The notes under the pieces: model-generated
Seen by the model: the letters and a program-made list of their open reading frames with translations, nothing else
What the model was told of the DNA's origin: nothing
Databases searched by the model: none
Made by a program: the position numbers and the translations under genes
Shown: piece by piece, positions 7,395-49,134 of the stretch
How positions within the stretch are numbered: the stretch's first letter is position 1
Layout: each line of letters starts with the position of its first letter
Sequence record: MN158209.1
Direction: 5' to 3' (one strand)
Source: Escherichia phage BEK7
DNA length: 51,031 bases

Positions 7395-7426
7395 TGGGGA
7401 ATCCTTAACTGGATTCCCTTTTTTAT
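7395..7426 (+). terminator. rho-independent terminator after major capsid gene
   Basis: GGGGAATCC-TTAACT-GGATTCCC then TTTTTT. Confidence 0.65.
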
Positions 7427-7439
7427 TGGAGGTTATGAA

Positions 7440-7712: not shown

Positions 7713-7713
7713 T

Positions 7714-7742
7714 AAAGAGGGCGCTTATAGCGCCCTCTTTCA
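7714..7742 (+). terminator. hairpin terminator
   Basis: AGAGGGCGC-TTAT-AGCGCCCTCT then TTT. Confidence 0.5.
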
Positions 7743-7759
7743 TATCTGGAGGAAACACA

Positions 7760-9479: not shown

Positions 9480-9867
9480 ATTAATGCTATCGGCGCGTAA
9501 GGCGCTGGCGACTGAATACGAAAGCAGATTCATGATCGCTTATGAAAACGTAGAGTTTACGCCACCTGGTGACGGTTCGCCGTGGTTGAAGTTTGACTAT
9601 GCCGAAGTTGACACAGAATACTTGTCATTGGATCGCAAATGCGTTTCTTATATCGGAATGATTCAGGTTGGTATTGTGTTTCCACCAGGTTACGGAACTG
9701 ACAGGCCGCGTGTGCTCGCTAAAGAGATTGCGCAATTCTTTTACGATGGTAAAATGTTGGAGCATGGTTATATATATGAGGGTGCAAGAGTTCACAAGCC
9801 GCTCAAGAGTGAAAGCGGCTGGCTTCTCCCAATAAGGTTTTATGTTCGAATTGAAACAAAGGAGTAA
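9466..9867 (+). CDS. tail completion protein (putative)
   Basis: ATG after GGAG; positional. Confidence 0.4.
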   Translation: MSHYELMLSARKALATEYESRFMIAYENVEFTPPGDGSPWLKFDYAEVDTEYLSLDRKCVSYIGMIQVGIVFPPGYGTDRPRVLAKEIAQFFYDGKMLEHGYIYEGARVHKPLKSESGWLLPIRFYVRIETKE

Positions 9868-9872
9868 AAATT

Positions 9873-10535
9873 ATGCATTTACCAAATGGATCGCAAGTTT
9901 TCGTTGAGAGCAATCGCGGCAGCGAAATCCAAGCAACGGCAGTATCAAACGCTAAAGATCCTGTGTTCACCGTTGCATCTGGTGGCACTGCGTACAAGAA
10001 AGGAGATTATGTAATCATCACTGCGTCCTCCTGGGGTAAGCTGATTGATCGTGTTATGCGTGTAAAGGCTAACGGTGAAGAAACAAGCGTAACTCTTGAG
10101 GGTGTTGATACTACAGATCAGAACGTGTTCCCGACTGGCGGAACTGCATCTTTTGCCAAGATTGATGCATGGACTGAGATCCCTTGCGTTCAGGATTTGT
10201 CGCAGGACGGCGGCGAACAGCAATACTATACTTATCAGTGTTTGGCAGACGACCAGGAACAGCAGTTGCCTACCTATAAGAGCGCCATTTCTCTGACCTA
10301 CACTTTTGCGCACGAATACGATAACGCGATCTATCCGTTACTTCGTGCAGCAGACGAATCCGGTGAAGTAAAGGCGCTTCGCATGTATGTACCAAAAGCA
10401 AAAGAAATGCGCCTTTGGGCTGGTGTGCTTTCTTTCAACGAGATCCCACAAACGGCGGTAAACGAAATGGAAACCGTTTCTTTGTCGGTATCCCTGAAAG
10501 GTCGCTTTACTTTCTTGCCGTCTACTCAGGCTTAA
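9873..10535 (+). CDS. major tail protein
   Basis: 220 aa, RBS AAGGAG, directly upstream of the chaperone/tape-measure block; terminator downstream. Confidence 0.6.
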   Translation: MHLPNGSQVFVESNRGSEIQATAVSNAKDPVFTVASGGTAYKKGDYVIITASSWGKLIDRVMRVKANGEETSVTLEGVDTTDQNVFPTGGTASFAKIDAWTEIPCVQDLSQDGGEQQYYTYQCLADDQEQQLPTYKSAISLTYTFAHEYDNAIYPLLRAADESGEVKALRMYVPKAKEMRLWAGVLSFNEIPQTAVNEMETVSLSVSLKGRFTFLPSTQA

Positions 10536-10539
10536 TTTA

Positions 10540-10566
10540 AAGGGGCGCATTGCGTCCCTTTTTTAT
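10540..10566 (+). terminator. rho-independent terminator after major tail gene
   Basis: GC-rich imperfect hairpin GGGGCGCATTGCGTCCC then TTTTTT. Confidence 0.5.
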
Positions 10567-10606
10567 TTGATGTAATATCACCTCAATATTTAACCACTCA
10601 GGAGAA

Positions 10607-10927
10607 ATGACAATGGCTAAAATGAAATTGACTCTTGCCCCGCTTCCAGATTTCAAACTTCCAGTTAAATTTGTATTGCCGGATGGTAACGAGCAAAAAA
10701 TTGTGTTTACCGTTAAGCATAAAAAGGCCAGCGAGATTCAAGAGCTTTACCAGAAAGAAGGTATTAAAGATCCTGAATTCATCATGAATGTTGCCGTGGG
10801 TTGGGATCTGGAAGAAGAATTCAACGAAGAAAACGCGCAACTGTTAGTTGATTATTATCCTGGCGCGGCGCTTGCTCTTATGGGATCTTATTTGAGCGCG
10901 CTGGCAGGGCAACGCGTAAAAAACTAA
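10607..10927 (+). CDS. tail assembly chaperone (G-like)
   Basis: 106-aa ORF directly upstream of tape measure, ending just after slippery A_AAA_AAC. Confidence 0.7.
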   Translation: MTMAKMKLTLAPLPDFKLPVKFVLPDGNEQKIVFTVKHKKASEIQELYQKEGIKDPEFIMNVAVGWDLEEEFNEENAQLLVDYYPGAALALMGSYLSALAGQRVKN

Positions 10928-11238
10928 AACGGGCGGTTTATCTGTATTATCAGAAACCGCCGACAGACGCAGAGCTTGAGGCCGTTGGGCTTACAAGGGC
11001 AGACTATGAAGGAGAAGATCCGCCAGAGGTTATATTTGATGAAAGCATGATGCAATCATGGGATATATTTTGCGCAATGCAAACGCAATGGAGATGTTCT
11101 GGCGGTGGCGCTTACGGATTTGATTACAACGTTCTCCCGATGCTTTTTGAGATTTACAAGGTTGAGGATCGCGAGATGGCGCTAAACGACTTGCGAATCA
11201 TGGAGCAAAAAGCACTTGAAATGATGCATTCAAAATAA
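10607..11238 (+). CDS. tail assembly chaperone -1 frameshift fusion product (GT-like)
   Basis: The -1 frame is open from the slippery heptamer 10918-10924 to the stop at 11236-11238 (verified codon by codon); the second ORF (11047-11238) is in exactly the -1 frame. Confidence 0.6.
10918..10924 (+). other. programmed -1 ribosomal frameshift slippery heptamer A_AAA_AAC
   Basis: X_XXY_YYZ heptamer just before the chaperone stop codon, -1 frame open downstream. Confidence 0.6.
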
Positions 11239-11260
11239 GCGCCTACGGGCGCTTTTTTAT
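11237..11260 (+). terminator. rho-independent terminator between chaperone and tape measure
   Basis: AGCGCC-TACG-GGCGCT then TTTTTT. Confidence 0.6.
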
Positions 11261-11277
11261 TACCAGGAGGATTAATA

Positions 11278-31873: not shown

Positions 31874-32575
31874 ATGAGCAAAGAAACTGAAGTGACATTT
31901 GAACAAATAGAACGCGAAACATTCATTGGCAATGCTCTTGCTACTGGTGGTCATTACCAGGCTGTTAAACCAAATCAATATTTCAAAGTGACTGGCAACC
32001 GCTATAACGGCAGCAATACGCCGGACGTTGTGCGCGATATGTGGAGCACGCCTCAAGAGATTGTGGAGTGGATGGAATCAGAATTTGGTGAATACGATCT
32101 CGACGCGGCAGCAAGCCAGGAAAACGCAGTTTGCGAGAAGTTCTATAGCAAGGAAACAAACTGCTTAAAGCGTTTGTGGGGTAGTAATAAGCATATATGG
32201 CTGAATCCACCGTACAGCAATATTACTCCATTTGTTAAGAAAGCGATTGAGCAAATGGAGTACAATAACCAGATCGACATTCTGTTACCTTGCGACACAT
32301 CAACAGGATGGTTTTATGAAGCGCAACAGCGAGCAGCGGAAATCATCTGGATCACTGGCGAAGTTTACCAGGAGGACGGAACAGAATATTCCCGCACCGG
32401 ACGACTGGCGTTTACCTCGGCTCTTACAGGTAAACCAGTGCAGGGAAACAACAAAGGAAGCGTTATTTTCATCATGCGCGAACTTAAAGAAGGTGAGCAG
32501 CAGAAAACGCGATACGTTAAGATCAGCGATATTTGTCCTTCTGTAACCGAACGTCGCGCACGGAAACGGAGCTAA
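31874..32575 (+). CDS. dam: DNA N6-adenine methyltransferase (phage Dam-like)
   Basis: Catalytic NPPY motif (HIWLNPPYSN); 233 aa. Confidence 0.8.
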   Translation: MSKETEVTFEQIERETFIGNALATGGHYQAVKPNQYFKVTGNRYNGSNTPDVVRDMWSTPQEIVEWMESEFGEYDLDAAASQENAVCEKFYSKETNCLKRLWGSNKHIWLNPPYSNITPFVKKAIEQMEYNNQIDILLPCDTSTGWFYEAQQRAAEIIWITGEVYQEDGTEYSRTGRLAFTSALTGKPVQGNNKGSVIFIMRELKEGEQQKTRYVKISDICPSVTERRARKRS

Positions 32576-36986: not shown

Positions 36987-38566
36987 CCCAGCAATGTTGG
37001 ATTTACGAAAACAACGCCATTAATCACACAAATATAATTTCTTTCCTCAAGCATCGGAAGCAGTTGCGTTTCCATGCGCTTCATTACGCCAGCCTGACCA
37101 ACAAAAGGCTTAACTTTTCGTGCTGCCTCATATATGGCGCGCACATTCAAGATTCCCTTATTAGCCTTGCCGTGTCGAGTGATGATCTCGATTAGTTTAC
37201 CCATTTCAGCATCATCACCAGCATAGCCAGAAGCGTTTGCGGCGCTAATGTATGTTTTGCTCAACTCGCTAAACATCAGCAATGCTTCCTGAACGGTTTC
37301 AACCTCAATCTCTTTAGACTTCTGAGGGTATCCACCAGGATTAAACCAATTGCGGATAGTGTGCAAAACCGAAGCAATCCTGATCACCTGCTTATCCATT
37401 TTGCCAAGCGCACCTCGCAGCATTGTATGCGAATACTTTCCGCCATCAGCAAGATGCGGTTCCATCTCCTGACGAGCCATGTTAAGCACTCGCATTGCTG
37501 ATTTGCTGATCTTAAGCTGGATGTTTGATTCGCTCATTATGTTATGGATCAGCTTGAAATATTGGCTTTTCAGTTCCCCATCAACAGGTTCATAAGTAGA
37601 GTCACCGTTATCATCAACAAACTTTCTACGGCCTAAAAATGATTCCTCACGCACAAGCAAATAACGCTCACTTACACCGATACCTCGCGATCCTGCATCC
37701 ATGATGGCATTGATTGTTTCATCCTGGGCAATTACCGCCATACATCCAAGAGCTTTAAAACTCATATTGTTGTCAGCGTTTGCGCGAGCTATAGAAACAT
37801 GACCGTGATCCCATGCTTTCAGCACAAGTTCGCTGTTTGTTTTGCGTTCGCTATTGGCATATGTCAGACCTAAAAGGCTGTTAATACTCGTTGCCTCGTC
37901 TGAAATTACAGCAAAGTTACCCTGGCGATTGTTGATTCTTGCAAGTCCTTCCGGCGTGGTATCGGACACAGGGAAAACAATGTCACACATCTTTTCAAGT
38001 TTTTCTTCAAGATCTTCTTTCTCCTGGTATAGCGATTCCATGTCAGCGCCAGATCGCTCGCTTTTCATCTCTTTTGCAAGACCTGCCAACTTTGCCTGAA
38101 TCTTTTTTCGTTCCTTCTTTCGCTGATCATTAATTCTTTCTACTTCAGCAACCATAGGAGCAAGCGCCAGGCTGTTAACGGCAGATTTACCAGTTGAAGG
38201 AGGCTGGCTTGTGACAACATAAAGAGCGGTCGGCTGATCCGTTCCGTGATACTCAACAGTGAAGCGTCCAAGCATTGCAGCAGACACACATCCGATAAAA
38301 TGCATATATGCCGATGATTCAGGGAACTGAACTGATCGAGCAATGTTGCGCGCCAACTTACCAACAACATCAACATCATTGCCAAGAGAAATTATAGGGT
38401 AGCGATCGTTTCCGTTATTAACATCATTAACCCCACCCCAAAAGCTGGACGATTGACGGTATCCGTTAGCCTGAATGGACACGCGCACCGGAGACAATCC
38501 TTGCGCATCAGCTAATTCTATAATTTGTTTTGGTGTTAGTTTATTGGTTTCAAACGAAAAATTCAT
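36983..38566 (-). CDS. P-loop NTPase protein (possible replication protein)
   Basis: ATG after GGAG; Walker A-like SQPPSTGKS; about 527 aa; no other motif recognised. Confidence 0.45.
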   Translation of the reverse strand: MNFSFETNKLTPKQIIELADAQGLSPVRVSIQANGYRQSSSFWGGVNDVNNGNDRYPIISLGNDVDVVGKLARNIARSVQFPESSAYMHFIGCVSAAMLGRFTVEYHGTDQPTALYVVTSQPPSTGKSAVNSLALAPMVAEVERINDQRKKERKKIQAKLAGLAKEMKSERSGADMESLYQEKEDLEEKLEKMCDIVFPVSDTTPEGLARINNRQGNFAVISDEATSINSLLGLTYANSERKTNSELVLKAWDHGHVSIARANADNNMSFKALGCMAVIAQDETINAIMDAGSRGIGVSERYLLVREESFLGRRKFVDDNGDSTYEPVDGELKSQYFKLIHNIMSESNIQLKISKSAMRVLNMARQEMEPHLADGGKYSHTMLRGALGKMDKQVIRIASVLHTIRNWFNPGGYPQKSKEIEVETVQEALLMFSELSKTYISAANASGYAGDDAEMGKLIEIITRHGKANKGILNVRAIYEAARKVKPFVGQAGVMKRMETQLLPMLEERNYICVINGVVFVNPTLLG

Positions 38567-38619
38567 TGGTGATAACTCCTTTTTGATGCGGCAATAATAC
38601 CGCACCAATGCTACCCGCA

Positions 38620-38638
38620 TTTAACAAAAAATGCTATT
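38620..38638 (-). promoter_or_regulatory. conserved 21-nt promoter-like element (copy)
   Basis: Minus-strand AATAGCATTTTTTGTTAAA; its TAG is the stop of ORF 38634-38897; TATTAT 22 nt downstream. Confidence 0.5.
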
Positions 38639-38897
38639 TGATCCGCTCTATGCTAACTAAGATTTTTTCTGGTTCCTTTGCACTATGGAAATGCGCGGTT
38701 ACAGAATCAACAAAATCAAAGTAAAGTGATTTGTGATATGAGAATCCAATCAGCCAACCTACCGCCGTTTTTTTGATGGGCCTGACTATATCGCCAGGCT
38801 TGAAGGTTTTTGTTGCTGAATAAGTCACCTTATAGCGATATTCAGTCTTGATCATGAGACTTCTCTTTTCCGTGGTTTTCGTGGAAACCATGCTCAA
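38634..38897 (-). CDS. hypothetical protein
   Basis: 87-aa ORF. Confidence 0.35.
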   Translation of the reverse strand: MSMVSTKTTEKRSLMIKTEYRYKVTYSATKTFKPGDIVRPIKKTAVGWLIGFSYHKSLYFDFVDSVTAHFHSAKEPEKILVSIERIK

Positions 38898-39360
38898 TCA
38901 ACAACCTATCTATTGCTGATATAGCCGACTCAATACATGTGTGCCATCCACCATAAATCAATCTACCATCAACCTTTACATTAACCTTGTACTTCCCCCT
39001 ATTTTCGTACCAGATAATTCCTATATGACCGATTGTATTGTTAGATCGCATGGATAAATTTCGTCCGTTTATCGACCTTGTAACCAATCTCAAGTTTTCT
39101 ATCCTGTTATCAGTTCTGTCATGGTTTATGTGATCAATTTCCATTCCTTGAGGAATATCTCCGTTGTGCATAATCCAAACAACCCTGTGAGCATAAATTT
39201 GTACACCTTCTACAGTTAGCTTTACATACCCTTTGCTGTTTACGGTTCCAGCCTCAAGACTGCGTTTTCTACCCTTTCTCCACTCCTTCCAGTAAAGAAT
39301 ACCGTCGTCGTATCTTAGTTGGCTTAGAAGTATTTCGCTTGAAATTTTGCAGTTGCACAT
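38842..39360 (-). CDS. HNH homing endonuclease
   Basis: HRVVWIMHNGDIPQGMEIDHINHDRTDNRIENLRLV. Confidence 0.85.
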   Translation of the reverse strand: MCNCKISSEILLSQLRYDDGILYWKEWRKGRKRSLEAGTVNSKGYVKLTVEGVQIYAHRVVWIMHNGDIPQGMEIDHINHDRTDNRIENLRLVTRSINGRNLSMRSNNTIGHIGIIWYENRGKYKVNVKVDGRLIYGGWHTCIESAISAIDRLLIEHGFHENHGKEKSHDQD

Positions 39361-39707
39361 TCAAAACCATCCTCGCAGCGATATAGAGTAAAGCGATCAC
39401 CTTGTTCATCGTAAACATACCCAGCAACAGCGCCAAGCACTCTACCACTTTCCACTTGATACCTCTTTCCTTGCTTGAAAGTTTTCTTAACGCTAAGAGA
39501 ATGGTCAACGAAAGTGCAAAGTATTGTTTTTGTCTTGATATGACGATAGTCAGACTCAACAGCGTTTTGCCACTTGCTACCCTTTGTAATGCTCTTTACC
39601 TGGAATTGTTCCAACTCGATCACATCATCGCTACCAGCAATTTTTTCGTATACAGCTTTATAACGACCGTTCATCAAAACGTTGGTTTTATTGCAGATAA
39701 CTTTCAT
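39324..39707 (-). CDS. hypothetical protein
   Basis: 127-aa ORF about 70 nt downstream of an element copy. Confidence 0.4.
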   Translation of the reverse strand: MKVICNKTNVLMNGRYKAVYEKIAGSDDVIELEQFQVKSITKGSKWQNAVESDYRHIKTKTILCTFVDHSLSVKKTFKQGKRYQVESGRVLGAVAGYVYDEQGDRFTLYRCEDGFECATAKFQAKYF

Positions 39708-39762
39708 CGTTTATTTCTCCTTTCGTTTCGGTGAAGTGATTATGCCAGGTTTTTACACCTGG

Positions 39763-39783
39763 CTTTTAACAAAAAGTGCTATT
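39763..39783 (-). promoter_or_regulatory. conserved 21-nt promoter-like element (copy)
   Basis: Minus-strand AATAGCACTTTTTGTTAAAAG; TAG is the stop of ORF 39779-40465; hairpin CCAGGT...ACCTGG then CATAAT. Confidence 0.5.
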
Positions 39784-40465
39784 TTGAGTTTGCCTCAAAT
39801 ACGGCGCGAGCAAATCCTCGCGGAGTGAGTGAGCGTAGTTGCTTTGTTCTGGCAGACTTACCGCCTAAAAACTTCCAACCCCAAAAGAACATTACGCCCT
39901 CATCATTGCATAACGGCTTGCGTTCGGGTTCTGTAAATCCGTTGCCGCACCAGATAGCAGTCCTTTTTGTGTATCCATCCTTTAGCGGCATCTTGGGGTG
40001 AAAAGATCCATCGGATTCGTCCAGGTAGTTACCAAAATCGCGCGGATTGAAATAAAAATCAGGCTTGCGCCATAGCGTTGATAGTCGGCCTACAGGATTC
40101 TCAGCCATCCAGGGAACACCGAAATGATTCCCGACAGTTTCAACCATGATTGCATTTTTGAGCGCGACCTGAATATCATCATCGCTTCGCAAGTGCTTAC
40201 TTCCTGATTGGGCAAACATGGTGCAGTCTGGAAATCCAAATACAATATCTGGTTTTGGAATATCCATCTTACTGATTCTTTCAATGAAATTTTCATCAAT
40301 CCACATATTCACATAATGAAGATTTTCATGCTTCATCTTGATGAAATATTCTCCGTGGTTGCCTTCGTCAGCGTTGAAGCAATAGCATTGATAGCCAGCC
40401 TTCGCATATTCCAGCAACATAATTCCAGATCCATCAAACATTGAGTAAGCGATTTTTTGTTTCAT
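39779..40465 (-). CDS. C5-cytosine methyltransferase-like protein (compact, no obvious target-recognition domain)
   Basis: AdoMet motif I-like YSMFDGSG, PC-like FGFPDCTMFAQSG, ENV-like AENPVG; only 228 aa. Confidence 0.45.
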   Translation of the reverse strand: MKQKIAYSMFDGSGIMLLEYAKAGYQCYCFNADEGNHGEYFIKMKHENLHYVNMWIDENFIERISKMDIPKPDIVFGFPDCTMFAQSGSKHLRSDDDIQVALKNAIMVETVGNHFGVPWMAENPVGRLSTLWRKPDFYFNPRDFGNYLDESDGSFHPKMPLKDGYTKRTAIWCGNGFTEPERKPLCNDEGVMFFWGWKFLGGKSARTKQLRSLTPRGFARAVFEANSK

Positions 40466-40474
40466 CTTTCAGCC

Positions 40475-40699
40475 TCAAAACGGAAAGCATATGGGGCAGT
40501 TCGGATCAAAATTGCAACCACAATCATTAACAATCATAGTTGGATCTGCAAATGCAGCGCCGCATTCATGATCCATATCCATTTCACCCAACGCATCATC
40601 AAGCGTCCTGATCTTATATGCAACTTCAAGCGCCGCCTCTTTATTTAGTCCGGCATCTTCTGCCATTTGAAGGCGTTCAAAAAAACCGTCCTGACTCAT
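40475..40699 (-). CDS. hypothetical Cys-rich small protein
   Basis: 74 aa with HECG...CGC...CPIC cluster. Confidence 0.4.
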   Translation of the reverse strand: MSQDGFFERLQMAEDAGLNKEAALEVAYKIRTLDDALGEMDMDHECGAAFADPTMIVNDCGCNFDPNCPICFPF

Positions 40700-40809
40700 T
40701 TCATAAACTCCTTAATAACAGCAAGAATAATTACAAGACCAGCAGTAAAAACAAGAAAACCGACAAGGCCAATCATAACACCAAATAAAATATCAAGCGC
40801 CTTAATCAT
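40696..40809 (-). CDS. hypothetical 37-aa membrane peptide (below ORF-track cutoff)
   Basis: Translation MIKALDILFGVMIGLVGFLVFTAGLVIILAVIKEFMK from reverse strand; stop overlaps next start (ATGA). Confidence 0.3.
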   Translation of the reverse strand: MIKALDILFGVMIGLVGFLVFTAGLVIILAVIKEFMK

Positions 40810-40819
40810 TTATTCACCA

Positions 40820-40850
40820 TTGATAAAACGGGAGGCAGCAACCTCCCATT
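40820..40850 (-). terminator. hairpin terminator-like element (minus strand)
   Basis: GGGAGGC-AGCAA-CCTCCC followed on minus strand by GTTTTAT. Confidence 0.4.
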
Positions 40851-40856
40851 AATTAA

Positions 40857-41123
40857 TCAGACAGCCTTCCAGCTTTCAATGAACATGCTGTTCTCTTCAA
40901 GAAGTTTAATCAATTCTTCGCGAGTATATTTGCGAATTTTACTACCAGGATGCGAGCCAACAACAAACACACCTTTACCGCTTGTGATTGTTAACTGGTT
41001 GATTCCACAAGATTGATCAATTTTCACAGCGACGCGGTGATGTGCATCAACAGTGTGCATGATGTTAGTTACTTTAGCTTTCATTGCGCGATCCTCATTA
41101 TATTTGGTTTGGTAACTATACAA
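40857..41123 (-). CDS. hypothetical protein
   Basis: ORF in track. Confidence 0.35.
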   Translation of the reverse strand: MYSYQTKYNEDRAMKAKVTNIMHTVDAHHRVAVKIDQSCGINQLTITSGKGVFVVGSHPGSKIRKYTREELIKLLEENSMFIESWKAV

Positions 41124-41258
41124 GGTTTAAGAAATATTGTTTAGCAATTCGTGATATCAGTTGAAATGGCTATGGCGTTTTGCTCGCTTTCCGTCTCCGC
41201 CATAATGATCATTAGAAACAGCAATCATCCAGGAATTATGGAATATTATTAGCTTCAT

Positions 41259-41537
41259 CTAATTAATACCAACCAAGTTAAAACTTACATTTTTTGTTGA
41301 GAATACATACGCCTCAACAGCGCCGCCAAATACGCGAATTTTCCCATGTCCGTACTGCGTATTCATATTGCGCCAAACCGTTATATTAGAACAGAACGCG
41401 CTACCAGTCTTAATGAGATTATCCATTTCTCTTCTTAGATCACGATAATCAAGCCAGAATCTATAAGCGCGTTGTTTAATTCGCGCCGACTTGATTATCT
41501 CGATTGCGCTATTGAAATCATTCTTTTCATATGCCAT
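41259..41537 (-). CDS. hypothetical protein
   Basis: ORF in track. Confidence 0.35.
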   Translation of the reverse strand: MAYEKNDFNSAIEIIKSARIKQRAYRFWLDYRDLRREMDNLIKTGSAFCSNITVWRNMNTQYGHGKIRVFGGAVEAYVFSTKNVSFNLVGIN

Positions 41538-41734
41538 TAGATGATCTCCATATAGGTTTCAAAGCCAGTCAACTTGAACAAGCCGTTTTCACATTTTCGC
41601 ACGTTCCAAGTCAGCCCTGAGTGGTACGCCTCCATATCATCAAGATCAATGGTGATTTCAACGCCTTTCTTAAATAATCCTTTTTCGTGAGATTTGTCGC
41701 GCTTAACCACTTTAACATCAACCTGTGTTTCCAT
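41537..41734 (-). CDS. hypothetical protein
   Basis: Start moved to ATG (METQVDV); about 68 nt downstream of an element copy. Confidence 0.35.
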   Translation of the reverse strand: METQVDVKVVKRDKSHEKGLFKKGVEITIDLDDMEAYHSGLTWNVRKCENGLFKLTGFETYMEII

Positions 41735-41791
41735 TTTCAAATCCTCGCATTCGTTGTCGATGCGCTTAATATACCAATCAGAGGCGCATCG

Positions 41792-41812
41792 GTTTTAACA
41801 AAAAGTGCTATT
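41792..41812 (-). promoter_or_regulatory. conserved 21-nt promoter-like element (copy)
   Basis: Minus-strand AATAGCACTTTTTGTTAAAAC; TATATT lies in the loop of hairpin GATGCGC...GCGCATC. Confidence 0.5.
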
Positions 41813-42171
41813 TAGTCCAGGAATTCGATTTCACGTTCTCCAGTTAGCGGATCTACAAGCCAGAATCCGAGCGGCTCGCCGTAAACACCGCCATAGAATC
41901 CAAGCGCCGACAGATCTTCACCTTTAACGAATGCCAGGTTTCCGCAACGACTTACGTGAGACACGTTAACGATAACCGGAAAGGTGCGATCCTTAAACGC
42001 AGGCCGCAGGGCGTAACACCCGTTATTGAGCAAACGTGCTTTGCGCTTAACTGGAATAGGTGCATTGATTCGCGCCATCTCTATTTCTCCATTGTTGTTA
42101 ACCATGTTTAACGGCATCCAGAACATCACAGGATTCGTTAATAAATTTTGCCATGCGCTTATCATCACCAA
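41812..42171 (-). CDS. hypothetical protein
   Basis: ORF in track. Confidence 0.35.
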   Translation of the reverse strand: MVMISAWQNLLTNPVMFWMPLNMVNNNGEIEMARINAPIPVKRKARLLNNGCYALRPAFKDRTFPVIVNVSHVSRCGNLAFVKGEDLSALGFYGGVYGEPLGFWLVDPLTGEREIEFLD

Positions 42172-42337
42172 CAGGGATTAGCGCGTTAAACTCGAGTTTG
42201 CTACTGAATACCGTAACTTTATGAAACGATGCGAACGGCATCGACGGGAACTCCACTGTTTGCGTCAAGATCCGCAACCCCATCTTTTTGGCCCTTACCT
42301 GGGCCTCTGCAAGTTCAAAATCCATCTCATTAATCAT
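42098..42337 (-). CDS. hypothetical protein
   Basis: ORF in track. Confidence 0.3.
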   Translation of the reverse strand: MINEMDFELAEAQVRAKKMGLRILTQTVEFPSMPFASFHKVTVFSSKLEFNALIPVGDDKRMAKFINESCDVLDAVKHG

Positions 42338-42606
42338 TTCTTGATCTCCTCAGCAATAAACTTCAATACCTGGCGCAAAAACACTTCGTTGTTGATGGTC
42401 GCTGGCAATTCTTCTTTCACTTCTTGCGGCAGATATATATTGCCGTGCCAGGTCAAGCAATCGTAGTTGATACGATAAGAGCAAAGCCATTCGCAATCGT
42501 TATCTGCTTCCCAAATGCAAAGCTGCATTACGTCGCCAAAATCCTCAACAGTCAGATCCAGACCGTGACGCTTAGCGAAGTTGAAAGTGGTTTTGCTGAT
42601 GTTCAT
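42334..42606 (-). CDS. hypothetical protein (first gene of leftward cluster)
   Basis: 90-aa ORF, RBS GGAGAT, about 65 nt downstream of an element copy. Confidence 0.4.
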   Translation of the reverse strand: MNISKTTFNFAKRHGLDLTVEDFGDVMQLCIWEADNDCEWLCSYRINYDCLTWHGNIYLPQEVKEELPATINNEVFLRQVLKFIAEEIKK

Positions 42607-42664
42607 TGCTATCTCCTGAGCGTTTCGTTTCGATGTGTGTAATGTACCCGATCAGGCGGATTCA

Positions 42665-42685
42665 GTTTTAACAAAAAGTGCTATT
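42665..42685 (-). promoter_or_regulatory. conserved 21-nt promoter-like element (copy)
   Basis: Minus-strand AATAGCACTTTTTGTTAAAAC; TACATT 22 nt downstream. Confidence 0.5.
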
Positions 42686-42949
42686 TGCCGACTGGTTATT
42701 ATTCCATCTATTCCATTAATCAGGAATAACAGGAATAACTCATTCGCGATCACCTGGATTGTGAGACTTTGAGTTTGATCAATTTTAATCAGTTGATTAA
42801 CTTTTTGTGCGGAGGGGATAGAGAAACACGGTCCTCTCGCATCCTTTCCGGCAATCCTGGCGAGCAATTCTGTTTCTTTCGTTCCCGTTGTTATGCCAAA
42901 TAGCCCTCCGCAACTGGCGATAACAGAAATCGCGTTGACATAACAAAAA

Positions 42950-43145
42950 AAACAAATATAAATATATATATATACCCATAAAATCAATAAGTTAGTTATA
43001 TATATAATTATAACTGTTATCTGTTGTTATCCTTGTTTCATGGGTATATTGGTAGGTGGTATTGTTTTTGTGAATATGTATGTGTGATTGTATGTTTTTT
43101 AATCAATGGTGATATGTGGTGATTTTGTATGTATATATGTATGGG
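42950..43145. repeat. AT-rich divergent control region, copy B
   Basis: Shares ATAAAATCAATA, TGTTATCTGT, GGTGATTTT, GTATGTATAT blocks with 21661-21850. Confidence 0.6.
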
Positions 43146-43276
43146 GGAGTGGCAATCCTCCGTCAACCAGCTAAACAAGCCAATATTTTCAAGTTAAAAC
43201 AATGACTTAAGCTGTGTCATTTGTTATCAGGCAACAGCATTTTGATAAAAAATGCAGCCAAAACAGAGAAAACATA

Positions 43277-43305
43277 TTGACACCACCAGGCTGCATGGTC
43301 ATAAT
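43277..43305 (+). promoter_or_regulatory. sigma70-like promoter (TTGACA-17-CATAAT)
   Basis: -35 TTGACA 43277-43282, 17-nt spacer, -10 CATAAT 43300-43305, about 40 nt before ATG 43345. Confidence 0.6.
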
Positions 43306-43344
43306 GCGCCACATCTAAACGCAACCAATACGGGAGAAAATTCA

Positions 43345-43863
43345 ATGATTAACGACGATCTTGAAATGATTGACGAAAGCGAAGACGAAGCGCCACGCAT
43401 GACGCGCAAGGAGTTCTGTAACATGCTGCGCGAGGTTGCGCAGAAGATTGGCAGCGGTGAACGTGACGAAGTGTCAATGCCGATCCTGTATATACACGCC
43501 AACGTCGAGGATGGTCACGAAATTACAGCATCATACATGCGCGGAATTATGAATCGTGTGCCGGAAATCAAAAAGCGCGGAGTGACAAGCATTAAGCGCA
43601 AAACTGGTAGTGGTGGATGCTGCTATGTGTTCTCACTTGCAGAGAAAGAGAGCAAACCTCGCGTGCTGACTGGCGATGAAATTAACGCCATTGTAAGCGA
43701 GAGAACTGCTAAGGCTGTTAATAAAGCGCTTAAGCACCTGGCTAGCGTGATGCCTCGCGTGTCAGATCTTGAAGGTGATAAGCTGGCTGGGGCGCTCATT
43801 ATGGGTGAGCGATTCCATGAAATTATTGATGGCATGATTAAGAAGGTTGGCGACGATGAATAA
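43345..43863 (+). CDS. hypothetical protein (acidic N-terminus)
   Basis: ATG after GGGAGA; first gene of rightward cluster. Confidence 0.45.
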   Translation: MINDDLEMIDESEDEAPRMTRKEFCNMLREVAQKIGSGERDEVSMPILYIHANVEDGHEITASYMRGIMNRVPEIKKRGVTSIKRKTGSGGCCYVFSLAEKESKPRVLTGDEINAIVSERTAKAVNKALKHLASVMPRVSDLEGDKLAGALIMGERFHEIIDGMIKKVGDDE

Positions 43864-44104
43864 GATTGATATTGATAAAGCCGCAAAACAAGTTGTTAGT
43901 GCGCTTGGTGGCAAGAAGTACACGAAAGAGGATGTGGAAAAAATACTGGACACGGCTAGGGACTTGATGATTCACGATGCCGTGCTTTCTTCTGGAGAGT
44001 GGCAAAAAACGTATCCGGCATCTTCCGAGGATATGATGAAAGCTATCAGAATCCTAGTAAATCACAGGGATAGCTTTAGCGTTACTTTCACTGACCGGAA
44101 ATAG
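43847..44104 (+). CDS. hypothetical protein
   Basis: 85-aa ORF; stop TAG is inside the next element copy. Confidence 0.4.
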   Translation: MATMNKIDIDKAAKQVVSALGGKKYTKEDVEKILDTARDLMIHDAVLSSGEWQKTYPASSEDMMKAIRILVNHRDSFSVTFTDRK

Positions 44105-44120
44105 CACTTTTTGTTAAAAC
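44100..44120 (+). promoter_or_regulatory. conserved 21-nt promoter-like element (copy)
   Basis: AATAGCACTTTTTGTTAAAAC; CATAAT 22 nt downstream. Confidence 0.5.
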
Positions 44121-44198
44121 TCGAAAACGATAACCAGGCATAATAAATCACATAGGGCGGCACGGCGTCGACCACAAAACCAATCAGGAGAAAGCACC

Positions 44199-45089
44199 AT
44201 GTTAAAACTTGCTGACATTAAATTCCCGATCACCTTCGAATCTCGCTACATTGGTCATTTCATGTTTACCGACGAGAAGACATGCACTAAGTTTAACGAA
44301 GACGGAAGTACAAACGCTTCAACAATGGAGATTGAACACTTCATTGAAGCGCACAATAAACACTACAACTCACTCAGAGACTACGGTTACGCAATGCCAG
44401 GCTACACTTGTTTGCACTACAAACCATATGAAGGCCAGGTGTTACCAGTGCGCTCGCCGGAACGCGAAGAGATTCATACGGTAGATATGAAAACCTGCGA
44501 CTACAAAAAATTGTGGTGCTTAAACGTGGATAACATTAAGTATCCGATCGTATTCCGCACTGTTGATTATTCAACGATTCGCTATACGTCACCAGACAAC
44601 GGCGTTTATAGTGATGGCCTGAAATCAGGTTTTAAAGTTGATTTTTTTGTTGATGGTCATAACAAATTAAATCCGCACAACGAAAAAGATAAGGTGTACT
44701 ACGTGGAAGATATTACAAAACACTTGTTTGGGGAAACACCATTCGGCGGCGGGAAGACGTCAATTCAAAAAATCATTGGCGAGGAGATCCACAAGGAAGC
44801 CGCTGAAATGAAAGCGCCTGGAAGCTGGCGTATTGATAAGAGCGAAATTGCCTATCAAGAAATAGTAACGCAGGGAGCAATTGAAGACATGCCAGTTGCC
44901 GCCACGTTAAAAGGGGTTCAGCTTGATGACGGCACCTGGTATGAATTAACGGCTAAGCCAAAGACGATCGAAATTCATGATGACGTTGTTATCCTCCTTC
45001 TTCACTACTGCGGAGCTAAAAACCGGACTGTTGCAGGTGAGATCAGCATCAAGCGCGGAACTATGGTTAAGTGGAAGGTCAAAGTATGA
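44199..45089 (+). CDS. hypothetical protein
   Basis: 296-aa ORF with RBS AGGAG; no motif recognised. Confidence 0.45.
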   Translation: MLKLADIKFPITFESRYIGHFMFTDEKTCTKFNEDGSTNASTMEIEHFIEAHNKHYNSLRDYGYAMPGYTCLHYKPYEGQVLPVRSPEREEIHTVDMKTCDYKKLWCLNVDNIKYPIVFRTVDYSTIRYTSPDNGVYSDGLKSGFKVDFFVDGHNKLNPHNEKDKVYYVEDITKHLFGETPFGGGKTSIQKIIGEEIHKEAAEMKAPGSWRIDKSEIAYQEIVTQGAIEDMPVAATLKGVQLDDGTWYELTAKPKTIEIHDDVVILLLHYCGAKNRTVAGEISIKRGTMVKWKVKV

Positions 45090-45148
45090 GTAATTGGCAC
45101 AACGAGCATGTAATGCAGTTTTACCGCCAGCGCATCAAGAAAATGCTC

Positions 45149-45169
45149 AATAGCACGAATTGTTAAAAC
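45149..45169 (+). promoter_or_regulatory. conserved element, GAA-variant copy
   Basis: AATAGCACGAATTGTTAAAAC followed by hairpin GGGCCA-TGTATAA-TGGCCC with TATAAT in the loop. Confidence 0.5.
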
Positions 45170-45221
45170 TCAAATGTGGGGCCATGTATAATGGCCCTAC
45201 TTTCAACGAAGGAGACAAAAG

Positions 45222-45452
45222 ATGTACATTAGCAAGAAGATGAAGTGCATTTCCGTTAACCATGGTCGATCTGGCATGTTCAAGCCAGGCGAAATCTATA
45301 TGGCGCAAAAGTTGAAATCATCAACCGGATCTTTTTACGTGAGAAATAGTAAAGGACATCTCATGTTCCTGAACGGTGGCGAAGGTACTAAGGTTATGGC
45401 ACACGCTATGGTAATTGCTGAATTTGAGGAGGTGAAGGATGGAGACAAATAA
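45222..45452 (+). CDS. hypothetical protein
   Basis: 76-aa ORF, RBS AAGGAG. Confidence 0.4.
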   Translation: MYISKKMKCISVNHGRSGMFKPGEIYMAQKLKSSTGSFYVRNSKGHLMFLNGGEGTKVMAHAMVIAEFEEVKDGDK

Positions 45453-45660
45453 GCGCGTTAAACACAAGTTTATTGATAATCATGGCGATGCGCTTGAGGT
45501 ATATAAGTTTGGCGATCGAGTGTTTATTGATGGAACGTTTGAAGGTGGGCTAAGGCCAGATTTTAGGTCGACACTCACCATTGACAAGGTGCGCAAGCTG
45601 GCGGATAAGTTAAATGATCTTGCAGATGAAATCGAATACAAGCAAATTCATTTTAATTGA
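45439..45660 (+). CDS. hypothetical protein
   Basis: 73-aa ORF, RBS GGAGG. Confidence 0.4.
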   Translation: METNKRVKHKFIDNHGDALEVYKFGDRVFIDGTFEGGLRPDFRSTLTIDKVRKLADKLNDLADEIEYKQIHFN

Positions 45661-45671
45661 TAGGTTTGATA

Positions 45672-46214
45672 ATGAAAAAATACGAATTTGAACTTTGGGG
45701 CAGCAAATACCATTTTTCCACGAGCAAGCCGATTGTTATCGTTGACCTGGACGGAACGTTATCAGACGGAACGCATCGCTTGCACCTGCTTCCGACAGAA
45801 GATTTGCACCTTACAGAAAGCTGGTCTGAGTTCAATAAGGCGGCTGTTGGCGATTCGCCGATTAAGAGCACGGTTGCAGTGGTTAACGGTTTGTGGATGT
45901 CGGGATTTGCCATCGTTATCCTGACCGGACGTAGCGATGAAGTGATGGAGGACACCTGCAAATGGCTTAACGAAAACAGCATCAAGTACGATGCGTTAAT
46001 CATGCGCCGCAAGGAAGACAACCGCAAAGACACAATCATCAAAGAAGAAGTCTTGCGCGCTATCGGACTGGAAAACATTGTGTGCGCTTTTGATGATTCG
46101 CCGAACGTGGTTAAGCACTTCCGAAGCCTGGGAATCACAACCTATCAGGTCACGGAATACGACAAGCCACATAATCATATCCAATCGCATGGCGTGGAGG
46201 AGTTGCAGAAATGA
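45672..46214 (+). CDS. HAD-family phosphatase (polynucleotide 3'-phosphatase / nucleotidase-like)
   Basis: HAD motif I IVIVDLDGTLSDG, motif II ILTGRS, motif IV FDDSP. Confidence 0.6.
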   Translation: MKKYEFELWGSKYHFSTSKPIVIVDLDGTLSDGTHRLHLLPTEDLHLTESWSEFNKAAVGDSPIKSTVAVVNGLWMSGFAIVILTGRSDEVMEDTCKWLNENSIKYDALIMRRKEDNRKDTIIKEEVLRAIGLENIVCAFDDSPNVVKHFRSLGITTYQVTEYDKPHNHIQSHGVEELQK

Positions 46215-46420
46215 TCCTGAATGTAGCATATGCTAACCCTCGCGGCCGCAATATATTCGGCTTTAAGGTTGGCGCGATGGTCAACGCCAGGATAAACGAA
46301 AAAGGCGTATTAGTTGTCAAGTCTCCTAAAACTGGCGTGGATATGCACATCAAGGAGAACGGCGGAAGATTGTTTATCAGGTCAATGTCTGGTCAAACGC
46401 TCGCAACGTTCACCAAATAG
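46211..46420 (+). CDS. hypothetical protein
   Basis: 69-aa ORF; stop TAG inside the next element copy. Confidence 0.35.
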   Translation: MILNVAYANPRGRNIFGFKVGAMVNARINEKGVLVVKSPKTGVDMHIKENGGRLFIRSMSGQTLATFTK

Positions 46421-46437
46421 CACGAATTGCAAAAAAC
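46416..46437 (+). promoter_or_regulatory. conserved element, GAA-variant copy
   Basis: AATAGCACGAATTGCAAAAAAC then hairpin GGGCTT...AAGCCC containing TATAGT. Confidence 0.45.
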
Positions 46438-46492
46438 AGATCATCGGGCTTGCTGTATAGTAAGCCCATCAACAACAAACGAGGATTAAATC

Positions 46493-46756
46493 ATGGCTAA
46501 CAAGATCGAGTTTTTTAAAGCTGTAGACATTATCGACGGCACGCCTAGCTTCTTTGCTATACATTCTATTGACGGAAAGGACATTGGTTACAATGTTATC
46601 CGTCGTGATGGAATCTCAAAACTTAGTAACCTGGTAGGCCATATTGTGTCAAACGGGAAATGCACATGGCCCGATTCGCCACGAGATCCACGCCGCCGCG
46701 ACATGGTAGAGCCTGTTCTGCTTTACACTCTGGTAATTGAAGGGGAAAACAAATGA
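46493..46756 (+). CDS. hypothetical protein
   Basis: 87-aa ORF, RBS GAGGA. Confidence 0.4.
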   Translation: MANKIEFFKAVDIIDGTPSFFAIHSIDGKDIGYNVIRRDGISKLSNLVGHIVSNGKCTWPDSPRDPRRRDMVEPVLLYTLVIEGENK

Positions 46757-46938
46757 TCTATGCACTTGTATTTTTAGTTATTTTCTTTTATATTTCAGGA
46801 TTATTCATCTTCCGCGCATTGGTTAAAGTGTGTGATTGCACTGATAAAGATCAGCCTCTTGTTCTGGTGTTCTGGTTTGTGTGGTTTTGGGTGGCGCTTT
46901 ACCAGATTGTACTGGATGAAAGCGGCTTTAAGTGGTGA
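46753..46938 (+). CDS. hypothetical small membrane protein
   Basis: 61 aa with two hydrophobic segments. Confidence 0.35.
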   Translation: MIYALVFLVIFFYISGLFIFRALVKVCDCTDKDQPLVLVFWFVWFWVALYQIVLDESGFKW

Positions 46939-47132
46939 TTCTTGCTATAGCGCATTCATGCAGTGCGCTATATTGAGATAACAACAGGAGATTATGAAGA
47001 TGCGAAGCGTCGAAAAAATCGTATCCAAGAAGAAGCGATACAGCTACTACGAGCACCAAGAGATGAATCAACGCTATCGCAATAAGCGCAAGCGACCAGG
47101 CAAACATTCAAGCAGATATGGAGACAACTAAT

Positions 47133-47723
47133 ATGAAGCGCGACATTATCATCCTTAACGGACCGCCAGGGGTTGGAAAAGATACGCTTGCGGCATACTT
47201 AACGGGCCATCGTTACGCAGCCGTTGAAGCGTCGTTTAAACAGCCTATGTTTGATATTGCGTTTTCCATGCTTGGTGTTTACCGATATGACGAGTTCATT
47301 GATCTGTATAATGACCGCGAGCAGAAAGAAAAGCCTCAAGCAATCTTGCAAGGCAAGTCGCCTCGCCAGTTCATGATCTGGATTAGCGAAGAAGTTATGA
47401 AGCCAGCTTTTGGCGAGCAATATTTCGGAAATCGCATGGTTGAGCAAGTACACGAGATGTACGGAGATTTAGCTGTTGTAATTAGTGATGGCGGATTCCC
47501 TGAAGAAATCAAGCCGCTAGTTAAGGCAGGCCATGAAGTTCACATTTGCAGACTGCATCGCGAAGGCTTCACGTTTGATGGCGATTCACGAAACTATATT
47601 GACCTGAACGGATACCATCACCGAGTAAAACATTACGACTTCACAATGATTGATGGCGATCCAGAAAAGACTATTGACGAGATCATCAAAACGGTCCAGT
47701 GGAAACACATTAAGATCAAATAG
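47133..47723 (+). CDS. P-loop nucleotide / polynucleotide kinase-like protein
   Basis: Walker A ILNGPPGVGKDT (GKDT variant as in phage dNMP kinases); 196 aa. Confidence 0.55.
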   Translation: MKRDIIILNGPPGVGKDTLAAYLTGHRYAAVEASFKQPMFDIAFSMLGVYRYDEFIDLYNDREQKEKPQAILQGKSPRQFMIWISEEVMKPAFGEQYFGNRMVEQVHEMYGDLAVVISDGGFPEEIKPLVKAGHEVHICRLHREGFTFDGDSRNYIDLNGYHHRVKHYDFTMIDGDPEKTIDEIIKTVQWKHIKIK

Positions 47724-47740
47724 CACGAATTGCTAAAAGC
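47719..47740 (+). promoter_or_regulatory. conserved element, GAA-variant copy
   Basis: AATAGCACGAATTGCTAAAAGC; TAG is the kinase stop; TATAAT 22 nt downstream. Confidence 0.45.
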
Positions 47741-47793
47741 GGGGCGCAATGCCTCGCTATAATGCAAACACTAATCAACGAGAGGAAATCATC

Positions 47794-48195
47794 ATGGTAG
47801 AGTTAAACGACATTCGCGTTGGAACAAAATTTCGCGTAACCTGGGCAGATGAATATTGCGGCGTTAGCAGGGGTCAGGTTGTTACGGTGGATAGTATTTA
47901 TCGCGGGTGTAGCAAAGACTTTCGCCGACCACGCATCAAGAATGGCTATATCATAACTCGCCGTTTTGGCTTTGAGCATTATTACGTAGTGGCGACTCAA
48001 GGAGTTTTGATTGAGCTTCAGCGAATCAGCGATCATCGCGGCTGTCATGTCAAAACAACGAAGATACCATCTCAGCGATCGCGATACGATGCGCGCAGGA
48101 TGCGCAGGATTGCACGAAACGCGATCAAGTTCAAAAAGCATGGTGGTAACTTTTACCGAATGTACAAAGGGATTGCGCGAAATGCTGGAAAATAA
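47794..48195 (+). CDS. hypothetical basic protein
   Basis: ATG after GAGAGGA; Arg/Lys-rich C-terminus. Confidence 0.4.
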   Translation: MVELNDIRVGTKFRVTWADEYCGVSRGQVVTVDSIYRGCSKDFRRPRIKNGYIITRRFGFEHYYVVATQGVLIELQRISDHRGCHVKTTKIPSQRSRYDARRMRRIARNAIKFKKHGGNFYRMYKGIARNAGK

Positions 48196-48291
48196 CAAAT
48201 CAACCAATCCAAAGCCGACATTTGATTTTCATGAAATCATGACTGTGTTATTCTTGATTCTCTTAGTTGTTTATTCAGTGAGGGCAGCAAT

Positions 48292-48555
48292 ATGGTTTTT
48301 AATGCACTAAAACGAATCTTTAAACCTGAATACCGGATTGTTTCTTGCACAGAATGCAAGATTTATTACCTGCAACTCCGCCGCGTTATTAGTGGCGATT
48401 GGGAATATCTGACGAATGATGCTTTCGGCTTTTGGGCTATGAAGTTCAATAGCTACAGCGAAGCGCGTGAATACGCTAAAAAGTTGCACAAGTTCCGACC
48501 TTACAAGCTGCGTTTGCTGGTTGTCAAAAAATGCGATGTGTTGGATCACGAATGA
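48292..48555 (+). CDS. hypothetical protein
   Basis: 87-aa ORF. Confidence 0.35.
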   Translation: MVFNALKRIFKPEYRIVSCTECKIYYLQLRRVISGDWEYLTNDAFGFWAMKFNSYSEAREYAKKLHKFRPYKLRLLVVKKCDVLDHE

Positions 48556-48771
48556 AAAGAGTAATTGTCATTTTTATTGCCATTATCGCTGGTTCTCACT
48601 TGGCCTATGAGTATAGCGGCATTGTTGAGTCAATAGGCGGAATGATTATATTCCTGGCTGGCGCATATTACGGCTACGGCGATGGATTTTAAAATGGCAA
48701 GCGTTACATCCTGACTGGTAAGAAATAATGTTTAACCGCGCCGCTTCTGTGGCGCTAAAAGGAGGAAACAA

Positions 48772-49059
48772 ATGGCTAAAAGCAATCGTAAGATGTTGAT
48801 TAACGCATTCGAAAAGGCAGCGCTTGAGCGTGGTTGGAATGACTCATTTCACACAGCAAACTGTATCCGACGTTACGGATTCAAGAATTGCCGCTCATGG
48901 GCGCGTCAAATGGCTTCATGGTATGATCTTGATGCGCATTACCTTGATATGGATTGCGCCCTTGTTGAAATGATTGAGCAGGCCGCACTAGAGGATCGAC
49001 CATTAACGCAATCTGATTTTGACGATTTTGTGCGCGATGAAATCTATTACATGAGCTAA
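48772..49059 (+). CDS. hypothetical protein
   Basis: 95-aa ORF with RBS AAGGAGG; TAA stop followed in frame by the element's TAG. Confidence 0.4.
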   Translation: MAKSNRKMLINAFEKAALERGWNDSFHTANCIRRYGFKNCRSWARQMASWYDLDAHYLDMDCALVEMIEQAALEDRPLTQSDFDDFVRDEIYYMS

Positions 49060-49078
49060 TAGCACTTTTTGTTAAAAC
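49058..49078 (+). promoter_or_regulatory. conserved 21-nt promoter-like element (copy)
   Basis: AATAGCACTTTTTGTTAAAAC; imperfect hairpin then TAAAGT; about 75 nt before GTG start 49135. Confidence 0.45.
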
Positions 49079-49134
49079 TTCCGCGAGGGCATTTGTTAAA
49101 GTGTCCTCATTGAAGCGAAACAGAGGAAATAAAA

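Follow-up and report, generated by a model that had tools for sequence, protein, structure and literature searches.

The closest characterised counterpart of the gene analysed here, a compact C5-cytosine DNA methyltransferase gene of Escherichia phage BEK1-23, is dcm of K42, a strain of phage KarlJaspers (BASEL Bas06) that was studied in bioRxiv 10.1101/2023.08.16.553469 (published as Wang et al., Cell Rep 2024, 43:114857). In that work, all K42 mutants escaping the retron Ec86 (4/4) carried lesions in or just upstream of dcm, expression of K42 dcm was toxic only when Ec86 was present in the cells, and 34 of 35 Ec86-sensitive phages encoded such a gene (10.1101/2023.08.16.553469). Wild-type K42 Dcm produced 5-methylcytosine (5mC) in the multicopy single-stranded DNA (msDNA) of the retron, as detected by liquid chromatography coupled to mass spectrometry (LC-MS), and a C82A/E128A/K175A/K176A mutant, in which the Lys-Lys pair (K175/K176) had been treated as substrate-binding residues on the basis of structural superposition, did not; mutation of the CC of CCTGG in the msDNA stem abolished defence (10.1101/2023.08.16.553469). 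Methylation of retron Ec86 (Eco1) msDNA by the K42 allele leads to abortive infection, a known cost of this type of enzyme. The window examined here (the whole stretch of DNA analysed, 51,031 bp) is identical to the complete genome of BEK1-23 (MN158211.1), a T1-like coliphage of the genus Hanrivervirus (Drexlerviridae, Tempevirinae), and the gene in question, whose product of 228 amino acids (aa) was deposited as a 'hypothetical protein', occupies exactly the same slot as the 711-bp 'Dcm-like C5 cytosine methyltransferase' gene of KarlJaspers.

Several other described enzymes bear comparison with the BEK1-23 protein. It is a member, and not a variant, of the PHROG 757 group represented by the 'DNA cytosine methyltransferase' of Klebsiella weberviruses (e.g. 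KP36 gp74) and of many Escherichia, Salmonella and Enterobacter phages, with which it also has in common a syntenic position upstream of a helicase gene. K42/KarlJaspers Dcm (bas06_0055, 236 aa) resembles it in genus, slot, compact architecture and C-terminal motif IX (46% protein identity between BEK1-23 and KarlJaspers), but has the canonical Pro-Pro-Cys in place of Pro-Asp-Cys and diverges in the catalytic loop and in both candidate recognition loops. The canonical enzymes M.HhaI and M.HaeIII (PF00145) share the fold and the order of motifs, of which I, IV, VI and IX are recognisable, whereas the BEK1-23 enzyme is about 100 aa shorter, apparently lacks motif X and has Asp-Cys for Pro-Cys and E-N-P for E-N-V. 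The catalytic domains of DNMT3A and DNMT3B are 12–16% identical to it in sequence; DNMT3 differs in retaining motif X and in its length of about 285 aa, and functions, together with regulatory domains, as a dimer or tetramer. With E. coli Dcm and M.EcoRII it may have the target CCWGG in common, which is assumed in the literature for K42 and is compatible with the EcoRII resistance of KP36. E. coli Dcm is a protein of 472 aa whose gene in MG1655 overlaps that of the Vsr repair endonuclease, and by sequence the phage protein is not an orthologue of Dcm or M.EcoRII, there being no significant full-length similarity to Dcm.

We infer that the BEK1-23 gene most probably encodes an active, solitary (orphan) S-adenosylmethionine (AdoMet)-dependent DNA cytosine-C5 methyltransferase of the compact PHROG 757 family. 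The gene is real and not a chance open reading frame (ORF), since tblastn recovered homologues in 1,493 phage records, many of them annotated as DNA (cytosine) methyltransferase, and since the ratio of non-synonymous to synonymous substitution rates (dN/dS) against the 94%-identical A16a allele was 0.075 (32.5 synonymous and 11.5 non-synonymous differences); the reading frame starts with ATG behind a GAGG Shine-Dalgarno sequence. Assignment by profile search to a non-methyltransferase fold had been named in a first-pass annotation of the window as the outcome that would tell against its methyltransferase reading; instead, the protein matched PHROG 757, 'DNA methyltransferase', over its full length (aa 1–227, E 5.4e-79), and HMMER placed aa 8–100 on motifs I–IV of M.HaeIII (E 0.0012). 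Alignment of a compact-family profile (45 sequences) with a canonical profile (nine sequences, E. coli Dcm plus eight phage enzymes) by hhalign set query residues 1–220 on template residues 1–326 and brought motifs I, IV, VI and IX into register (E 2.8e-4, probability 41%). Against E. coli Dcm alone, the family hidden Markov model or profile gave nothing significant (hmmsearch E 0.016 over 43 residues; hhalign probability < 1%). Matches to DNMT2 were weaker than those to DNA methyltransferases.

A search of 5.8 billion proteins yielded 817 matches, the best 120 of which were nearly all 210–248 aa long (five exceptions, 148–329 aa) and, where named at all, which few were, went by hypothetical protein or DNA cytosine methyltransferase/methylase. 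When 1.84 billion cluster representatives (50% identity) were searched with a profile, 1,865 matched at E ≤ 0.001 and 772 at E ≤ 1e-10, and almost all of the best 150 of the 1,865 measured 200–260 aa. Because the best matches of both large searches are nearly all similarly short, the short length is a stable trait of a large family and not a truncation; relatives of the PHROG 757 type span 215–245 aa. In the phage collection, 1,493 records contain a member of the compact family and 564 a canonical enzyme similar to Dcm. No restriction enzyme partner appears in the deposited annotation of the phage or near the gene, nor beside a Serratia homologue, which stands alone in the replication (nin-like) region of a lambdoid prophage.

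The protein was read motif by motif, and most of what the first-pass annotation had proposed held. Its AdoMet-binding motif I lies at F10-D-G-S-G14, aligned by HMMER on FSGAGG of M.HaeIII. Its PC-like segment, FGFPDCTMFAQSG, is present at aa 76–88 and holds motif IV, but the shift described there, 'P-D-C rather than P-C-Q', was mistaken: HMMER sets F-P-D-C on G-P-P-C of M.HaeIII, so that Asp replaces the Pro of Pro-Cys and Thr the Gln that follows. The ENV-like AENPVG was also found as described (aa 121–126), with E122-N-P on the predicted strand 119–124; in canonical C5 methyltransferases the Glu of ENV is the proton donor to cytosine N3. For the motif VIII-like segment hhalign fixed no residue-level register against QxRxR, and pairwise alignment equated C81, E122, K167 and R168 of BEK1-23 with C82, E128, K175 and K176 of K42. 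The stretch R211-S-L-T-P-R-G-F-A-R220 falls with high posterior on motif IX (RRLTPRECAR in Dcm, RKLHPRECAR in M.HhaI; the M.HhaI C-terminus used as reference for motifs IX and X reads KTRKLHPRECARVMGYPD...FGNSVV).

Compared with M.HhaI (327 aa), M.HaeIII (324–331 aa) and eight canonical phage C5 methyltransferases (303–359 aa), the 228-aa protein is shorter by the roughly 100 aa that had been estimated at first pass. The target-recognition region is, as had also been supposed, missing or minimal, motifs VIII and IX being separated by about 34 aa, where M.HhaI has about 95 aa and Dcm about 115 aa. In the structural model, aa 177–209 and the loop 146–163 are the only candidate target-recognition segments. 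Motif IX is followed by just five residues (E-A-N226-S-K), and because the protein ends five residues beyond the motif IX helix there is no room for motif X, which in canonical enzymes such as M.HhaI helps to form the AdoMet pocket. Judged by these alignments, loss of motif X would be a departure from the canonical enzymes that goes beyond the minimal recognition region; that the conserved terminal Asn226 is a remnant of motif X is speculation.

Conservation was assessed in 227 members, of which 117 are close relatives and 110 represent clusters at 50% identity. The putative catalytic Cys81 was retained in 117/117 close and 109/110 distant members (226/227), and Glu122 in every one (117/117 and 110/110, i.e. 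227/227). N123 and P124 were near-invariant in both groups, Y165, K167, T169 and W172 occurred in 116–117 of the 117 close and in all 110 distant sequences, and most of motif IX was conserved. Residue 80, in turn, was Asp in 85, Ser in 19 and Pro in 11 of the close relatives; in the wider family Pro predominated (86/110). Since residue 80 varies freely while Cys81 stays, Asp80 appears to be a peculiarity of the clade and not a sign of decay.

An AlphaFold2 model built on 27 sequences was of high confidence (predicted local distance difference test score (pLDDT) 89.7, predicted template modelling score (pTM) 0.88) and has the catalytic-domain fold of the C5 methyltransferase superfamily, with the usual strand order and 54 residues beyond strand 7 that form a loop and three short helices. 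The sole poorly defined stretch, aa 88–100, directly follows the catalytic Cys; canonical enzymes have a mobile active-site loop at the equivalent position. The structure comparison suggested at first pass also came out on the side of DNA C5 methyltransferases: Foldseek against the PDB ranked DNMT3A/3B first (E 4e-7), followed by M.HaeIII, a methyltransferase of prophage CP-933R, DNMT1 and MET1. In the viral structure library BFVD the named close matches were cytosine DNA methylases, the best match (template modelling (TM) score 0.91) being unnamed. A dCMP methylase of the thymidylate-synthase type was rejected, since both fold and motifs mark the protein as a Rossmann-type AdoMet enzyme. The compact fold was also seen inside very large proteins of uncultured phages (A0A6J5SE15, 1397 aa, and A0A6J5NPY6, 1126 aa; 23–28% identity, TM 0.64–0.66), one of them labelled helicase/UvrB N-terminal, and further viral cytosine methyltransferases of about 200–250 aa occur in Tetraselmis virus 1, Lactococcus phage P087 and Halobacterium phage phiH.

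By homology with M.HhaI and DNMT3-type enzymes, the target cytosine would be flipped out of the duplex, Cys81 would attack C6 while Glu122 of E-N-P protonates N3, and Lys167, Arg168 and Thr169 may hold the flipped base or its phosphate; AdoMet bound at F10-x-G-x-G14 would donate the methyl group. DNA might be read without a separate recognition domain, through the flexible catalytic loop (aa 88–100) and the short loops at aa 146–163 and 177–209. The enzyme would then probably methylate replicating phage DNA, complementing the phage Dam, and so allow escape from cytosine-sensitive host restriction.

Comparison of window positions 39300–41000 with the KarlJaspers stretch 4500–6250 and with Fulano1 revealed sharp borders around the gene. 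BEK1-23 and KarlJaspers DNA agree at about 95% of positions as far as the ribosome-binding site; identity is only about 55% in the gene body and returns to about 95% from roughly the last 60 nt of the ORF onwards. Between these flanks Fulano1 has the allele of the KarlJaspers type; that of A16a is of the BEK1-23 type. The methyltransferase ORF has been exchanged as a precise cassette, and both alleles circulate in Hanrivervirus. Protein identity to the KarlJaspers allele is lowest in aa 88–116 (21%), 177–205 (34%) and 146–163 (39%), a pattern that fits a difference in specificity without proving one.

What was observed at this locus, namely a gene of this family and fold that is under purifying selection, has its catalytic residues conserved and is syntenic with K42 dcm, has to be weighed against a number of points that tell against an active methyltransferase. 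Pfam PF00145 reached 13.8 bits over aa 8–93 only, below its gathering threshold of 22, NCBIfam had no match for the 228-aa protein, and searching the PDB with a profile built from 27 close relatives retrieved no sequence at E ≤ 1. Residue 80, canonically the Pro of Pro-Cys, is Asp, and motif X (FGNSVV in M.HhaI and Dcm) appears to be absent, the canonical-profile alignment stopping at aa 220. Formation of 5mC would be carried over from the 46%-identical K42 enzyme, and activity, target and anti-restriction benefit of the BEK1-23 allele are likewise inferred. The EcoRII resistance of KP36 is confounded by host Dcm, and in the BASEL study the methyltransferase genes carried by Drexlerviridae bore no simple relation to their resistance to restriction (PMC8594841). 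The low Pfam score, the Asp of Asp-Cys and the missing motif X, together with an Asn in place of the acidic residue that ends strand 2, are what one would expect of a catalytically dead, DNMT3L-like protein, a decoy or DNA-binding factor that, for example, shields sites or sequesters a host factor; an inactive decoy had been among the first-pass candidates. We regard this as very improbable, because Cys81, Glu122-Asn-Pro, Lys167 and Thr169 are invariant or nearly so in the 227 members, which would be needless without catalysis, and because dN/dS is as low as 0.075. Across the family, moreover, residue 80 is free (Pro, Asp, Ser, Glu or Val) and the Cys never is, and the active K42 enzyme likewise has Asn at strand 2 and no motif X. 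The Pfam score itself recurs elsewhere: ten diverse family members reached 16.3 bits or less against PF00145 or were unmatched, so the compact family is effectively outside Pfam's model.

An enzyme acting on something other than double-stranded phage DNA (RNA or tRNA as DNMT2 does, single-stranded or hairpin DNA), or one moving a group other than methyl, such as carboxymethyl from carboxy-S-adenosylmethionine (Cx-SAM), would account for the fact that the sole demonstrated substrate of a family member is a retron msDNA stem-loop, and a missing motif X could open the cofactor pocket. Such an enzyme seems just as improbable as a dead one: the K42 product matched a 5mC standard by LC-MS, which also disfavours the first-pass alternative of another kind of cytosine-modifying enzyme, the msDNA target lies within a base-paired stem, DNMT2 is the weaker match, and the 9 kb surrounding the gene are annotated in the deposited record without any cofactor-synthesis product, most neighbours being 'hypothetical protein'. 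The minimal C5-cytosine methyltransferase that headed the first-pass candidates is thus the one supported by the full-length PHROG 757 match, the near-invariant catalytic residues and the characterised K42 allele at the same locus.

Within this reading the target may still differ from that of the KarlJaspers/K42 enzyme and may be very short or relaxed, in which case the cassette swap would alter both restriction evasion and Ec86 triggering; we hold this to be quite possible, though we lean slightly against it. The alleles are 46% identical between flanks that remain about 95% identical to the gene borders, with Fulano1 carrying the other allele in the same flanks; their divergence peaks in the catalytic loop and the two possible DNA-reading loops, and no recognition domain is there to impose a long target. 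The CCWGG target of K42 Dcm is, besides, an assumption drawn from the name 'Dcm', with the msDNA CC mutants as its support, and K42 Dcm was toxic in itself on over-expression (10.1101/2023.08.16.553469). The retron experiments used MG1655, and msDNA contained little 5mC without the phage enzyme (10.1101/2023.08.16.553469). MG1655 carries its own dcm. Since msDNA in this dcm+ strain had little 5mC without the phage enzyme, the latter is not simply redundant with host Dcm, and the CCWGG specificity assumed for the K42 enzyme may be incomplete or wrong. Two observations point the other way. High conservation of the motif IX region and of the Trp, Gly, Ser, Thr and Lys of aa 195–208 in the close clade speaks for a common mode of DNA binding, and KP36, whose enzyme (gp74, 47552–48244, minus strand, syntenic) is 60% identical to the BEK1-23 protein, has DNA with 155 CCWGG sites that is fully EcoRII-resistant (PMC3620542), which is compatible with CCWGG methylation. 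The KP36 authors, who in 2013 saw no phage cytosine methyltransferase, credited this resistance to host Dcm (PMC3620542), an attribution that, given gp74, may need revisiting.

Inference of the target from site avoidance was dropped. CCWGG had an observed/expected ratio of about 1.0 in BEK1-23, KarlJaspers and KP36, where the gene is present, and equally in the T1 regions examined, where it was not found; because the site is not avoided even in T1 regions without the gene, site statistics are silent on specificity, and this too counts against the case for the enzyme. Literature searches returned no usable base-resolution methylome of a Drexlerviridae phage. Over the whole window, several six-base palindromes were strongly avoided (observed/expected: GGCGCC 0/17, AAGCTT 0/14, RCCGGY 1/21.5, GGATCC 1/13), GATC, CCWGG, GCGC, GCWGC and TGCA occurred at expected frequency, and CCSGG and GGWCC were depleted.

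A bolder proposal would make the compact family a distinct C5 lineage that, without recognition domain and motif X, is still efficient and sequence-selective, perhaps by forming a DNMT3A-like dimer or by reading through the catalytic loop, and in which the swapped Hanrivervirus alleles differ in target, their exchange being driven by a trade-off between restriction evasion and sensing by Ec86; we think this rather unlikely. The protein is a hitherto unlabelled member of a known, partly characterised compact family of phage C5 DNA methyltransferases, and neither the lack of a recognition domain and motif X, nor the Asp-Cys variant, nor the allele swap makes the gene a new kind of system. The finding is in this sense correct but largely ordinary, placing the gene in a large and already recognised phage family. 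In terms of annotation, a 'hypothetical protein' of BEK1-23 becomes a cytosine methyltransferase, and a very common phage family is seen to escape Pfam and NCBIfam. Enzymes of this type are presumed to counter restriction and are documented to trigger retron Ec86, so the sensitivity of a T1-like phage, whether therapeutic or a model, to Ec86 may be predictable from the allele it carries. A C5 methyltransferase of ~230 aa without recognition domain and motif X would also serve as a minimal scaffold for enzymology.

Table 1 Features of the methyltransferase gene, its product and the surrounding locus (positions in the window, or in the protein where marked aa)
Feature	Position	Strand	Basis and remarks
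Compact C5-cytosine DNA methyltransferase coding sequence	39779..40465	-	228 aa; GenBank QGH77171.1, deposited name 'hypothetical protein'
Shine-Dalgarno GAGG	40473..40476	-	8 nt before ATG; read directly from sequence
Motif I F10-D-G-S-G14 (AdoMet-binding FxGxG)	40424..40438	-	HMMER vs M.HaeIII; hhalign vs canonical profile; conservation counts
Motif IV F78-P-D-C81-T82, catalytic Cys81	40220..40234	-	Aligned with PPC of M.HaeIII; C81 equivalent to C82 of K42 Dcm
Motif VI E122-N-P124, ENV equivalent	40094..40102	-	Glu invariant; equivalent to E128 of K42 Dcm
Motif VIII-like Y165-T-K167-R168-T169-A-I-W172-C-G, last core beta-strand	39944..39973	-	Model strand 169-174; conservation
Short variable region aa 177-209, about 34 aa (loop and two short helices)	39839..39937	-	Model secondary structure
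Motif IX L210-R-S-L-T-P-R-G-F-A-R-A-V-F223	39797..39838	-	hhalign, high posterior; conservation; model terminal helix 216-226
Strand 1	aa 5-9		Model; motif I
Strand 2	aa 26-31		Model; motif II
Strand 3	aa 49-53		Model; no motif
Strand 4	aa 74-77		Model; motif IV, F-P-D-C81-T
Long helix	aa 95-115		Model; no motif
Strand 5	aa 119-124		Model; motif VI, E122-N-P
Strand 6	aa 137-139		Model; no motif
Strand 7	aa 169-174		Model; Y165-T-K-R-T-A-I-W
Dam-like N6-adenine methyltransferase	31874..32572	+	tblastn with KarlJaspers Dam: 94% identity over 233 aa
Repeated element AAATAGCAC-N5-TGTTAAAA ... CATAAT	39739..39786 (copy listed 39760-39784)	-	Overlaps methyltransferase stop codon; precedes gene 39324-39707
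Element copies, minus orientation	38615-38639, 39760-39784, 41789-41813, 42662-42686	-
Element copies, plus orientation	44100-44121, 45149-45170, 46414-46435, 47717-47738, 49058-49079	+

The methyltransferase gene belongs to a block of small leftward genes within the non-structural genome region; the deposited annotation lists its neighbours as small hypothetical genes, together with HNH homing endonucleases and a helicase. As the 74-aa ORF upstream stops 9 nt before the methyltransferase start (read from the sequence), the gene is probably co-transcribed with the small upstream genes; a generic sigma-70 and terminator scan defined no transcription unit for the locus. Two genes downstream, an HNH/AP2-type 'homing endonuclease' gene (38842–39360, minus strand) overlaps its neighbours, and the same position in KarlJaspers is without it, which suggests an inserted mobile, intron-less homing element. 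With the Dam-like enzyme (Table 1), BEK1-23 has two solitary DNA methyltransferases. T1 has Dam (ST20), and no homologue of the compact methyltransferase was found in T1 stretches 1–12000 and 38000–48836; by this comparison the compact gene is accessory within the phage family. About 40 'Campylobacter phage' records (MG065636.1 and about 39 others; C. jejuni, UNVERIFIED), classed by NCBI as Hanrivervirus, are 90–94% identical to BEK1-23, and their Campylobacter host label looks doubtful.

Nine copies of a repeated element were found, each consisting of AAATAGCAC-N5-TGTTAAAA with a TATAAT-like hexamer about 18 nt on. All are intergenic and co-oriented with the local genes in two divergent early arms, and the generic sigma-70 scan did not detect the element. 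By sequence and placement, the copies appear to be promoters of a class specific to the phage, in which a box upstream is conserved. The first-pass annotation had put the methyltransferase gene immediately downstream of one copy; that copy overlaps the stop codon and is therefore, relative to transcription, at the gene's 3′ end. It appears to be the promoter of the gene that follows (39324–39707), adjoining the methyltransferase gene but forming no part of it.

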